The notes under the pieces are model-generated. The model made no database searches, was not told the origin of the DNA, and was given only the letters and a program-made list of their open reading frames with translations. From an uncultured Candidatus Saccharibacteria bacterium (GTDB taxonomy: Bacteria; Patescibacteriota; Minisyncoccia; UBA6257; 2-01-FULL-56-20), in assembly GCA_964505005.1 (NCBI GenBank), contig CAZDFQ010000001.1, forward strand, positions 114,458 through 178,457: a DNA stretch of 64,000 bases. Reading direction: 5' to 3'. This document shows positions 29,055 through 30,881 of this stretch, one piece after another (within the stretch, counting starts at the first letter, position 1; the number at the start of each line of letters is the position of its first letter). The translations under genes and the position numbers were made by a program.

Positions 29055-30881
29055 ATGACGAATCGTAAAGCGGTTTTTTTCCTTCTTTTGATTTTAATTA
29101 TAGCAAGTTTCTTGCGGCTCTACCAAATAACGAGTGTGCCGCCAGGACTTTATCCGGACGAGGCCATCGGCGGCAACCAGGGGCTCGAAGCGTTCCGAAC
29201 CGGAAACTTTAGGTTGTTCTATCCGGAAAACAACGGCCGGACCGGGCTTTTCATTAATCTCCAGGGAATATCCGCGGGAGTATTCGGCGTGACCCAACCC
29301 TGGACCCTGCGCCTGCCGAGCGCGATTTTCGGAATCTTAACAGTCTTAGGACTTTATTTCCTTACAAAAGAACTCTTCGAAGACAAAATTTTGTTTTCTC
29401 CGAAACCCCGCAGCCGATTTGGCTCGGTCTCTCCGACCGGCGTCGGGGAGCAAATCGGCGAGGACGAGCGAGCGAGCCGCTGGAGCGAGCGAAGCGGGTT
29501 GAGGAAAAATGAAATTTTGGCTCTTCTTTCGTCGTTTCTTCTCGCTACGAGTTTTTGGCATATCAATTTCTCGCGCATCGGCTTTGACGGCATCCTGGCG
29601 CCGGCATTTTTGGTTTGGGCGATTTATTTACTGCTTAAAGCAATAAAAAGCTCAAATGACAAAGCTCAAATGACAAATCAAGCCCAAAACCCAAATGACA
29701 AAAATTTCAGTAATTTGGATTTTGTCCGGCCTTCGCAGCCGAAGCGGCTGCTTCGGTGGAGTAGGCGATTTGATTGGAGATTTGGATTTTGGATTTTGCC
29801 GATCCTGGCGGGATTGGTTTACGGCCTCGGCTTCCATTCTTACATCGCTTATCGCATCACGCCGCTCCTGCTTCTTTTCGTTCTGTTTATTTACTGGAGA
29901 AAATCAGGGAGAGAAAATTGGCGCAAAAAATTTCTACTTTCTACTTTCTACTTTCTACTTTCTACTTTTCTCGTGGCCCTGCCGTTGGGAATTTATTTCT
30001 TAACCCATCCGGCAGACCTCACGAGTCGGACATCGCAGATTTCGGTATTCAGCTCGGCCCAACCATTAAAAGACCTCGCGACTAATATTCTAAAGACGCT
30101 GGCGATGTTCAATTTCCGCGGGGATTCTAACTGGCGACACAACTATAGCGATAGGCCCGAGCTTTTCTGGCCAGTCGGAATTCTATTCATCATAGGGATT
30201 ATTATCGGGATAAAATCGCTACTTAAAAATCCAAATATCAAAGTTCAAATGACAAACCAAGCTCAAAGCCCAAATGACAAAAATTTCAGCAATTTGTATT
30301 TTGCCCGGCCTTCGCAGCCGAAGCGGCTGCTTCGGTGGAGTAGGCGATTTGATTGGAGATTTGGATTTTGGATTTTATTCCTCTGGTTCGCACTCGGCGC
30401 GGCGCCGGCCGTGTTTTCAAACGAAGGCCTGCCGCACGCGCTCCGAAGTATTTTGATGGCCCCGCCGGTTTTTATTTTCGCCGCCGTCGGCGGAATCTAC
30501 ATTTATGATTTCCTAAAAAAATACATAACCAGCTTCTGGCTGCCGGTCGCCACAACTATTTTCCTTTCCCTGCTCATCCTCGAGGCCTACAACACTTACT
30601 TTAATCTCTGGGCTGCCAATCCGAACACTTATAATGCTTTCAGTTCCGACTATGTGGAGCTCGGCCGAAAGCTTAATTCTTTGCCGTCGGCTGTCCCCAG
30701 ATATGTGATTGTCAAAGCCAATGGCGTGCTGGTTAACGGGATTCCGATGCCGGCCCAAACCGTAATGTTCATAACCGACACTTATTCCTCAAAAAATCAA
30801 CAGCTCAAAAACATCCATTACATATTACCTGACGAAGAAAAATCGATTCCGGCTGGGGCGATGAAATTTTATTTAGAATAA
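29055..30881 (+). CDS. GT39 / ArnT-like membrane glycosyltransferase (dolichyl-phosphate-mannose mannosyltransferase family) containing an in-frame duplicated ~135-nt segment.
   Basis: Polytopic membrane protein with an N-terminal ...RLYQITSVPPGLYPDEA motif. The repeat copies lie at 29665-29798 and 30244-30377. Confidence 0.65.
   Translation: MTNRKAVFFLLLILIIASFLRLYQITSVPPGLYPDEAIGGNQGLEAFRTGNFRLFYPENNGRTGLFINLQGISAGVFGVTQPWTLRLPSAIFGILTVLGLYFLTKELFEDKILFSPKPRSRFGSVSPTGVGEQIGEDERASRWSERSGLRKNEILALLSSFLLATSFWHINFSRIGFDGILAPAFLVWAIYLLLKAIKSSNDKAQMTNQAQNPNDKNFSNLDFVRPSQPKRLLRWSRRFDWRFGFWILPILAGLVYGLGFHSYIAYRITPLLLLFVLFIYWRKSGRENWRKKFLLSTFYFLLSTFLVALPLGIYFLTHPADLTSRTSQISVFSSAQPLKDLATNILKTLAMFNFRGDSNWRHNYSDRPELFWPVGILFIIGIIIGIKSLLKNPNIKVQMTNQAQSPNDKNFSNLYFARPSQPKRLLRWSRRFDWRFGFWILFLWFALGAAPAVFSNEGLPHALRSILMAPPVFIFAAVGGIYIYDFLKKYITSFWLPVATTIFLSLLILEAYNTYFNLWAANPNTYNAFSSDYVELGRKLNSLPSAVPRYVIVKANGVLVNGIPMPAQTVMFITDTYSSKNQQLKNIHYILPDEEKSIPAGAMKFYLE
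29665..29798 (+). repeat. First copy of a ~134-nt segment duplicated in-frame inside the GT39 gene. It contains the hairpin CCGAAGCGGCTGCTTCGG.
   Basis: The protein segments ...QMTNQAQNPNDKNFSNLDFVRPSQPKRLLRWSRRFDWRFGFWIL are repeated at 30244-30377 with about 93% nucleotide identity. Confidence 0.75.
29931..29965 (+). repeat. Tandem octamer (TTTCTACT x4) inside the GT39 CDS, encoding FLLSTFYFLLSTF.
   Basis: Periodic repeat is readable directly. Confidence 0.6.
30244..30377 (+). repeat. Second copy of the in-frame ~134-nt duplicated segment in the GT39 gene.
   Basis: See first copy. Confidence 0.75.

Follow-up and report, generated by a model that had tools for sequence, protein, structure and literature searches.

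A probable two-layer palindromic repeat in frame in two loops of a Patescibacteria glycosyltransferase gene

Palindromes that are read in frame within genes have hitherto counted largely as a peculiarity of Rickettsia, and hairpins of the repetitive extragenic palindromic (REP) type as lineage-bound and vertically inherited. Here we describe a gene for a GT39-like membrane glycosyltransferase in 64 kb of DNA from an uncultured Candidatus Saccharibacteria bacterium of the Patescibacteria (contig CAZDFQ010000001.1, positions 114,458 to 178,457; this whole stretch is called the window). The gene carries two copies of a 152-nt repeat made of an AT-rich palindrome (layer 1) and a GC-rich 42-nt hairpin nested within it (layer 2). 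We consider it probable that this is a two-layer selfish repeat in which an older layer 1 received one 42-nt insertion that was then copied by gene conversion within the gene, the composite being tolerated in frame. The locus would thus combine an in-frame AT-rich family in the loops of a Patescibacteria enzyme, a 42-nt invader, and intragenic gene conversion of the composite.

Among the closest described systems are the Rickettsia palindromic elements (RPEs). As recounted in PMC10969869 (citing Ogata 2000, Science 290:347, and Ogata 2002, Genome Res 12:808), these are palindromic repeats of ~100-150 bp that lie in frame in conserved genes, are inferred to be translated and to be tolerated by the protein fold, are missing from orthologs, and also occur between genes. 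The window repeats resemble RPEs in that they are palindromic and sit in frame in loops of a conserved gene; layer 1 also falls in the RPE size range and is missing from most orthologs. They differ in that the host belongs to the Patescibacteria rather than Rickettsia, with no known sequence relationship between the elements. Furthermore, one gene carries the layer-1 family at two sites and a third, different insert at another (site 0), the element has itself been invaded by a smaller module, and layer 1 is common to orthologs at the same loops. RPEs hit many unrelated genes; in the 64 kb the layer-1 family was found within this gene only, and a candidate in-frame palindrome of a different kind lies at 53072-53162.

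The inner module also resembles REPs, which have been found inside open reading frames (ORFs), sometimes twice per ORF, and within longer host palindromes (Di Nocera et al. 2013, PMC3733652). REPs and REPINs are described as lineage-specific and as inherited vertically together with a gene for a REP-associated tyrosine transposase (RAYT) (10.1101/2024.10.14.618302; Bertels and Rainey 2011, PMC3116915). Like them, the 42-nt module is a short, GC-rich, imperfect palindrome that is multi-copy, apparently mostly intergenic, and contains GTAG. Unlike them, it keeps a near-identical sequence in at least seven or eight labelled phyla instead of being restricted to a lineage, the GTAG is placed in its stem's 3' half whereas the REP tag is unpaired and 5', and no RAYT association was found among the neighbours of 118 listed cores. 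MITEs (miniature transposable elements with inverted repeats) can fuse in frame with ORFs (PMC10969869), and elements of the IS200/IS605 type insert beside hairpins in single-stranded DNA without target duplication (PMC6006769). The module shares with these its non-autonomous, hairpin-forming nature, but it is far below the typical size of a MITE, no terminal inverted repeats with target duplication were seen, and no parent insertion sequence was identified. In-frame selfish palindromes are known, and it is the two-layer architecture, the Patescibacteria host and the cross-phylum inner module that set this case apart. No description of such elements in Patescibacteria was found in the literature searched, a full-text literature search for the core sequence string returned zero occurrences, and the 42-nt cross-phylum module appears undescribed.

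Composite repeats in the glycosyltransferase gene

A repeat search of the window yielded a single, two-copy direct-repeat family at 29646-29797 and 30225-30376 (152 nt, 92% identical), with an offset of 579 nt or 193 codons (Table 1). Both copies fall in one frame of the ORF at 29055..30881 on the plus strand, where they encode ...QMTNQAQ(N/S)PNDKNFSNL(D/Y)F(V/A)RPSQPKRLLRWSRRFDWRFGFWIL, and both contain the hairpin CCGAAGCGGCTGCTTCGG. Two near-identical in-frame segments with this peptide and hairpin had been reported in the first-pass annotation of this DNA, and all three statements were confirmed, the segments now being delimited as 152-nt repeats. The 12 in-register mismatches (29650, 29651, 29652, 29658, 29659, 29665, 29678, 29684, 29689, 29711, 29718 and 29725) are distributed as a gradient: nine fall in 29646-29689, three in 29690-29725 and none in 29726-29797, corresponding to identities of 80%, 92% and 100%. 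The last of these intervals equals 30305-30376 over 72 nt without a mismatch. The right border of the repeat is sharp, with similarity stopping after ...GGATTTT, and the left border is fuzzy. When the 38-nt core was searched in the window with up to three mismatches, these two places alone were matched (chance expectation 0.00). Alternative-frame ORFs, which had also been pointed out at first pass, do exist and begin at an ATG within the repeat (CAAATGACAAA). In the protein library, dozens of mini-ORFs that stand alone likewise start at ATGs of the element, and we therefore regard the alternative-frame ORFs of the window as by-products and not as genes.

The host protein has ~2760 homologs at E<=1e-5, which are named GT39 or ArnT-like, carry PF13231, and come mostly from Patescibacteria (Liptonbacteria, Paceibacterota, Parcubacteria and others). 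Ortholog comparisons were made with the best 120 of these ~2760 (482-638 aa), 24 of which form alignment A1. Against PMT_2 (PF13231) the window protein scored 21.6 bits, under the cut-off of 26.1, and the match was confined to residues 70-110. The domain is present in most insert-poor homologs, and the window protein falls below the threshold because its inserts interrupt PMT_2; in practice, then, such inserts weaken domain detection. An AlphaFold (AF2) model built from alignment A1 had a predicted template modelling score of 0.80. In a Foldseek search this model matched AglB, STT3, ArnT (5f15) and PglB at E values from 7.8e-8 to 7.6e-4, and Pmt1-Pmt2 (6p25) at 6.7e-3. The layout of a GT-C fold, a polytopic N-terminal membrane domain followed by a soluble C-terminal domain, was found in the form of 11 hydropathy peaks and a C-terminal domain of 99 aa. 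The acidic motif Y33-P34-D35-E36 in the first extracytoplasmic loop is invariant in 24/24 aligned sequences.

By hydropathy, the loops after transmembrane helices (TM) 2, 4 and 8 (residues 104-153, 198-242 and 391-435) hold 10 Lys+Arg each; they are predicted to be cytoplasmic because the YPDE motif was placed in the first outside loop. Segments with a predicted local distance difference test (pLDDT) score below 50 (112-143, 215-242 and 394-432) correspond to these three insert-bearing loops. In the model, both repeat copies and the third insert are therefore predicted to occupy disordered loops on the same side of the membrane; whether the two insertions would fall in same-side loops had been raised at first pass, and for the loops after TM4 and TM8 the prediction answers in the affirmative. 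Both layers are multiples of three in length, and 5 of the core's 6 frames are open; the host protein therefore stays in frame and acquires two loops that are basic and predicted to be disordered. Of the earlier description, a cassette that is selfish or recombinogenic and an intact reading frame hold up. The inserts are probably translated, to judge from indels in multiples of three (42 nt, 33 nt) and the stop-free frame.

Length differences in the 24-sequence alignment concentrate in a few loops, where the shortest proteins have no inserts and many orthologs hold different, 'word-like' ones; among the best 120 homologs, anchor-to-anchor lengths of the three loops are 14-67, 36-86 and 34-113 aa. 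The closest ortholog among the matches listed, P0002 at locus L001, is 58% identical in amino acid sequence and syntenic with the window, with the same DUF87/TraG-like ATPase and 132-aa gene upstream. At both sites P0002 has the AT-rich part without the GC-rich piece in its centre; compared with L001, each window copy is longer by exactly 42 nt, TCCGGCCTTCGCAGCCGAAGCGGCTGCTTCGGTGGAGTAGGC, which stand between ggattttg and gatttgatt. Site 2 holds the ~111-nt AT-rich element in P0002, P0007, P0011, P0014 and P0021. Site 1 holds it only in P0002 and P0012, and P0012 is without it at site 2. A deletion of 33 nt at site 2 of P0002 keeps the frame. Over its first ~30 nt the left arm has a sequence that is particular to each site and common to window and L001: AAAAATCCAAAT..CAAGCTCAAAGC marks site 2 in both, and TCAAATGACAAAGCTCAAATGACAAA marks site 1 in both. 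Since orthologs carry layer 1 at the same loops, it predates this genome and has been gained and lost among relatives. The 42-nt module was absent from every reading frame of the other 119 homologs among the best 120, which suggests that only this inner hairpin is new in the lineage.

Layer 1 is also dispersed outside this gene family. A DNA profile of six copies (nhmmer) matched elements on the reverse strand as well, at E values down to 9e-12, which identifies layer 1 as an imperfect palindrome. In the window the profile matched the two gene copies and one distant intergenic relative only. A word-indexed protein search with the element profile was insensitive and missed training proteins; an exhaustive search of 1.84 billion representative proteins was used instead and returned 79 matches at E<=1e-3, nearly all of them ORFs of 25-105 aa. 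Those inspected consist of little beyond the element (M.N.KAQM.NQ.Q..N.K.F..L.F...L.FGFW.L), and a few matches lie at protein termini. In L129 (1377-1488) the C-terminus of an RNase HII is made up of one copy, and the copies in L128 are intergenic, with a nitroreductase gene on one side and a PurL-like (FGAR amidotransferase) gene on the other. A practical consequence is that such elements seed many spurious mini-ORFs in protein databases. The AT-rich arm had no match in the viral contigs scanned. Between genomes, layer-1 DNA is 80-88% identical, compared with 59-69% overall and 40-50% at third codon positions for the host GT39 genes (window versus L001, L125 and L126). Codon positions contribute evenly to the layer-1 differences (6/7/8, 8/9/8, 7/4/10 and 4/7/6). 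Judged by this pattern, layer 1 seems to evolve like non-coding DNA, but slowly, or to undergo repeated homogenisation.

The third insert, at site 0 in the loop after TM2, has AT-rich arms (aaaattttgttttctccgaaaccccgc ... gcgggttgaggaaaaatgaaatttt) in common with P0006 and P0098, and central GC-rich hairpins that differ between genomes; its RNA fold energy is -52.1 kcal/mol, with a z score of only -1.4. At the same site P0007 (L125, gene 148-1833) contains an in-frame 30-nt GC-rich piece, tccgccagaggcggatccgcctttggagga (SARGGSAFGG), that is absent from P0009 and P0003. In columns ~70-82 of alignment A1, FSAQGGPASGWK occurs in P0007 and P0008, and the variant FSAKGGPALGWK in P0057. The conserved TM7 sequence FLLSTFYFLLSTF is encoded by a run of TTCTACT heptamers at 29931-29961, and a look-alike motif, TGTAGAATGTAGAAT, occurs twice just upstream of the gene (28945-28961 and 29038-29054). 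Group I or II introns and inteins were rejected as identities for the inserts, which are 14-51 aa of low-complexity sequence without intein blocks and gave no Rfam intron match.

Table 1. Coordinates of the host gene, its inserts and related palindromes in the window
Feature	Coordinates	Strand	Evidence and remarks
Second host palindrome family (CAATCGG...CCGATTG), empty copy immediately upstream of the gene	28941..29054	-	Aligned locally, with one gap of 42 nt
Host gene, GT-C-fold membrane glycosyltransferase (GT39/PMT_2-like)	29055..30881	+	608 aa, 11 predicted TM helices
Palindromic insert at site 0 (third in frame), in the loop that follows TM2; borders approximate	29383..29519	+	Alignment A1 and DNA comparison; pLDDT <50 at residues 112-143
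Composite repeat, copy 1	29646..29797	+	Site 1, loop after TM4, residues ~198-242; pLDDT <50 at 215-242
Copy 1, left part of AT-rich layer 1 (KAQMTNQAQNPNDKNFSNLDF)	29646..29724	+	nhmmer model positions 2-80, E 1.5e-18; site signature shared with L001 site 1
Copy 1, nested 42-nt GC-rich hairpin module (encodes VRPSQPKRLLRWSRR)	29725..29766	+	No counterpart in L001 between ggattttg and gatttgatt; member of the cross-phylum family
Copy 1, AT-rich right arm (FDWRFGFWIL)	29767..29797	+	nhmmer positions 80-110; 31/31 identical to copy 2
Alternative-frame ORF, copy 1 (MTKISVIWIL...)	29695..30003	+	102 aa; by-product of the ATG within the repeat, not a gene
Composite repeat, copy 2	30225..30376	+	Site 2, loop after TM8, residues ~391-435; pLDDT <50 at 394-432; orthologous AT-rich element in P0002, P0007, P0011, P0014, P0021
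Alternative-frame ORF, copy 2 (MTKISAICIL...)	30274..30456	+	60 aa; by-product
Copy 2, nested 42-nt hairpin module	30304..30345	+	Same private C-to-T (GGTGGAG) as copy 1; first base C, not T
Inverted second copy of the CAATCGG...CCGATTG family, downstream of the two-gene block	31690..31790	+	A different, 21-nt GC palindrome CCTGCCTGCCGGCAGGCAGGG (31740-31760) at the position that the 42-nt module occupies in L035
Distant layer-1 relative, intergenic palindrome with its own GC hairpin (atccgccaggtggcggat)	49752..49869	-	nhmmer E 4.5e-6; RNA fold z -4.2

Origin of the two copies

At core position 33 both window modules have a T, against a C in 118 and an A in 2 of the 120 further instances sampled, and this shared private base indicates that they are each other's closest relatives. 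Their 31-nt right arms are identical, and differ at 4/31 positions from L001 and likewise from P0007, whereas the left arms (the first 80 nt, with all 12 mismatches) differ by ~15%. At that divergence the chance of a mismatch-free 31-nt arm is 0.85^31 = 0.0065. The confinement of high identity to the hairpin and right arm points to gene conversion between two older paralogous elements. In the order of events that we infer, two paralogous AT-rich layer-1 elements would have been inherited, a single 42-nt insertion into one of them would have followed the split from the P0002 lineage, and intragenic gene conversion would then have copied the module and right arm into the other element. The inserts are most likely neutral passengers. 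In metagenomes, the junction between core and right arm was found at three loci, none of them GT39 or a close relative of the window, and the scan brought up no strain in which only one site is filled.

Two independent insertions of the module at a preferred position of two paralogous AT-rich elements would dispense with gene conversion. Such targeting would suit a module that reproducibly enters hairpin-associated positions in unrelated host repeats, and the first base of the two window modules does differ (T versus C), both states being common in the family. This account leaves unexplained, however, the C-to-T change that none of the 120 other sampled instances shares, and right arms that are identical despite ~15% divergence of the left arms and 4/31 differences between orthologs. 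We think it has a small but real chance of being correct. Two insertions from a local master copy carrying the T variant are less likely than a single insertion followed by conversion; no third copy that could have served as a master is present in the 64-kb window. Far less room is left for a recent non-tandem duplication of a 134-152-nt gene piece into the second loop, one of the explanations offered at first pass. The 92% identity and the shared gene and frame would fit it, but AT-rich elements stand at both sites of the syntenic ortholog, at least five other orthologs have site 2 filled, each site has a left-arm signature of its own that is common to genomes, and identity is graded (80%, 92%, 100%) instead of uniform. 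We therefore regard such a duplication as very improbable. The companion proposal, one 134-nt unit inserted twice, fails in the same comparison, in which layer 1 is old and the inner hairpin separate and new in the lineage. The ortholog comparison suggested with those proposals thus gave a divided answer: the AT-rich part is at both sites in P0002 and at one or neither in other orthologs, and the 42-nt hairpin is in none of the other 119 homologs among the best 120. An ancient internal repeat, for which all orthologs were expected to carry both segments in diverged form, describes layer 1 in one clade; it describes neither layer 2 nor the other orthologs.

A selected role has also been considered, with the segments serving as a basic cytoplasmic peptide module or as hairpins, in mRNA or DNA, at which translation or transcription would pause between TM helices. 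The high conservation of layer-1 DNA relative to the gene (80-88% versus 59-69%) speaks for it, and the inserts always stand just before a TM helix, with the FGFWIL end running into the helix. Most orthologs have no inserts, though, the same loops hold unrelated inserts in others, and the layer-1 element is mostly free-standing elsewhere. In addition, the even distribution of substitutions over codon positions leaves no protein-level selection, no compensatory changes were seen in the hairpin test, and the fold z scores of whole units are weak (-1.4 to -3.5). Selection of this kind is, in our judgement, improbable. The conservation of layer 1 above that of its host gene nevertheless counts against part of our preferred account: it is not explained by a purely neutral passenger, and hints at nucleotide-level constraint or repeated homogenisation. 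An assembly or binning artefact, whether through collapse of a repeat or through a chimeric contig, would suit a source that is a metagenome-assembled genome and a protein whose exact sequence is present in a single NCBI record. We find such an artefact hardly credible given an identical tract of 72 nt, which is shorter than typical reads or final k-mers, left arms that differ, an intact ORF with all family-invariant residues, and the occurrence of the module in assemblies from different technologies, including Mb-scale nanopore contigs.

The 42-nt hairpin beyond the window

Layer 2 is a 42-nt GC-rich imperfect hairpin, [T/C]CCRGCCTTCGCAGCCGAAGCGGCTGCTTCGGCGGAGTAGGC. In a scan of one genome per species, its central 22-mer, GCAGCCGAAGCGGCTGCTTCGG, was found at more than 118 loci, for which we estimate a chance expectation of ~0.1 in ~1.2e12 positions. 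Loci with the 42-mer carry the labels Nitrospirota (Nitrospiraceae), Planctomycetota (Phycisphaerae, Planctomycetaceae and Brocadiia), Binatia, Verrucomicrobiota, Ignavibacteriales, Alphaproteobacteria (Rhodospirillales, Hyphomicrobiales and Kiloniellales), a betaproteobacterium, 'Deltaproteobacteria'/Syntrophobacteraceae, Saccharibacteria and other Patescibacteria; near-identical 42-mers are thus present in at least seven or eight labelled phyla. The module is almost invariant across Nitrospirota, Planctomycetota, Alphaproteobacteria, Binatia and Patescibacteria, with 32 distinct 42-mers among 122 instances. Conservation in 117 instances is near-total over the 42 nt and drops abruptly on either side. 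A genome often has several copies, some of them on Mb-scale nanopore contigs. The GC content of sampled loci ranges from 0.38 to 0.67, and the 118 listed loci come from groundwater, soil, lakes and wastewater. A hairpin adaptor or other sequencing artefact was rejected as the source of the 42-mer, as its flanks are short, imperfect and lineage-specific and it is present in Illumina assemblies from several assemblers as well as in nanopore assemblies.

Folded as DNA, the consensus module forms an imperfect hairpin of 14 pairs with an energy of -14.6 kcal/mol (z -3.2), and the window variant reaches -12.0 kcal/mol. GTAG occupies module positions 37-40 on the 3' side, largely inside the stem. The module is 14 codons long. 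A covariation test of the hairpin detected no double changes, and the single changes were half wobble and half broken; covariation is not demonstrable because the module varies too little in sequence. Whole 148-nt units fold weakly better than shuffles (z -1.4 to -3.5), for which reason we claim no selected RNA structure. Rfam 15 gave two chance hits only in the window region at E<=10, and on eight other loci tRNAs plus one sub-threshold chance match on a tRNA. No ORF of at least 100 aa spans the core in the low-GC loci L035, L103 and L108 from the candidate phyla radiation (CPR), and the long stop-free frames over cores in the inspected high-GC loci look spurious, with the core near their ends. 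Most copies elsewhere therefore appear to be intergenic, and cores in frame within genes of other phyla were rejected as an interpretation of those high-GC frames. This fits the REP pattern of a short, imperfect, multi-copy and predominantly extragenic palindrome. One alphaproteobacterial contig (L053) has two 42-nt modules 412 nt apart (723-744 and 1135-1156) under a 774-codon stop-free frame that looks spurious.

Empty sites were sought by joining the flanks of each instance and searching again, which recovered many empty copies of host repeats. For four unrelated host repeats a filled and an empty copy could be paired, the difference being exactly 42 nt with an ambiguity of at most 1 nt: a Nitrospira pair with the module between ccccgtagctt and gctgcgggg, a Hyphomicrobiales pair (gcgggctt and cgcgaagg), a Rhodospirillales pair in which the filled and empty states occur within one locus (gccgctt and cgcggc), and the window compared with L001. 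In a fifth case the host element is filled in the Patescibacteria locus L035 (1-330) between GCCGAGCG and AACCGATTG and empty in the window between 28989 and 28990. None of the five comparisons revealed a target duplication. A MITE, with terminal inverted repeats and target-site duplication, was rejected on this ground, the difference being exactly 42 nt in all five. Two inverted copies of the CAATCGG...CCGATTG family to which this last element belongs flank the gene pair formed by GT39 and an alpha/beta-hydrolase. Three states of one site can thus be seen: filled with the 42-nt module in L035, empty in the upstream window copy, and occupied by the 21-nt palindrome in the downstream one.

These comparisons suggest that layer 2 is a REP-like multi-copy family that probably inserts, precisely, inside or just 3' of a hairpin of whatever palindromic repeat the host has. 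Insertion in such places without target duplication is suggestive of an enzyme acting on hairpins in single-stranded DNA, such as the TnpA of IS200/IS605 or a RAYT, and we speculate that layer 2 might be moved in trans by an HUH/Y1-type transposase. Our tentative proposal, which we rate somewhat short of even, is that the hairpin is an undescribed, ultra-small and frame-neutral mobile module that spreads between phyla, inserts without target duplication at the hairpins of host palindromes, and becomes part of a protein in Patescibacteria. Several findings detract from our account of a two-layer selfish repeat. All 118 of the 118 listed genome loci are from metagenome-assembled genomes and none is from an isolate, so the family lacks the backing of a cultured isolate. 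The 42-nt core had no match in viral contigs, 72,556 plasmids or 50,697 phage records. When the ORFs around the 118 listed cores were clustered all against all, no neighbour gene recurred, a crude regular-expression scan of the neighbouring ORFs detected no HUH...Y transposase motif, and within the 64-kb window both layers are essentially confined to this one gene. If the module does move as the filled and empty sites suggest, it would be among the smallest mobile DNA units known, and could serve to trace the exchange of DNA between ultra-small episymbionts and neighbouring bacteria. A mobile module would, along with the dispersed AT-rich elements, place CPR genomes beside Rickettsia as the second, independent instance of 'protein-coding palindromes'.

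A host repeat around the 42-mer (ATTCTCCTTCGCC...GGCGAGGAGAAT) is partly common to Nitrospira (L005, L016 and L046) and to CPR genomes, where it was seen in a Harrisonbacteria locus (L108, ~4750-4900) and a Saccharibacteria locus (L070, ~6560-6680). This sharing suggests, on sequence similarity, that composite elements may have been transferred between phyla.

Other palindromes in the window

Inside an ORF on the minus strand (52901..54223), positions 53072-53162 form an AT-rich inverted repeat (GAATTATGAATGATGAATG... / ...ATTCATAATTC) that is read in frame as KNYESGIMNNETSTTSTTAQIPNSSFIIHNSK; possibly this is another gene with a palindrome that codes for protein. Three 40-nt palindromes, two of them perfect and one 95% complementary, occupy short gaps between ORFs of at least 150 aa (6583-6622, 7515-7554 and 58816-58855) and have arms of the form TTACTATTA.TA.AT...AT.TA.TAATAGTAA. 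Long palindromes built of AT-rich 'word' repeats lie between large ORFs at 45767-45872, 49730-49860, 52716-52835 and 62978-63082. At least those at 49730-49860 and 52716-52835 have short GC-rich hairpins inside or around them, a design that resembles the intragenic units.

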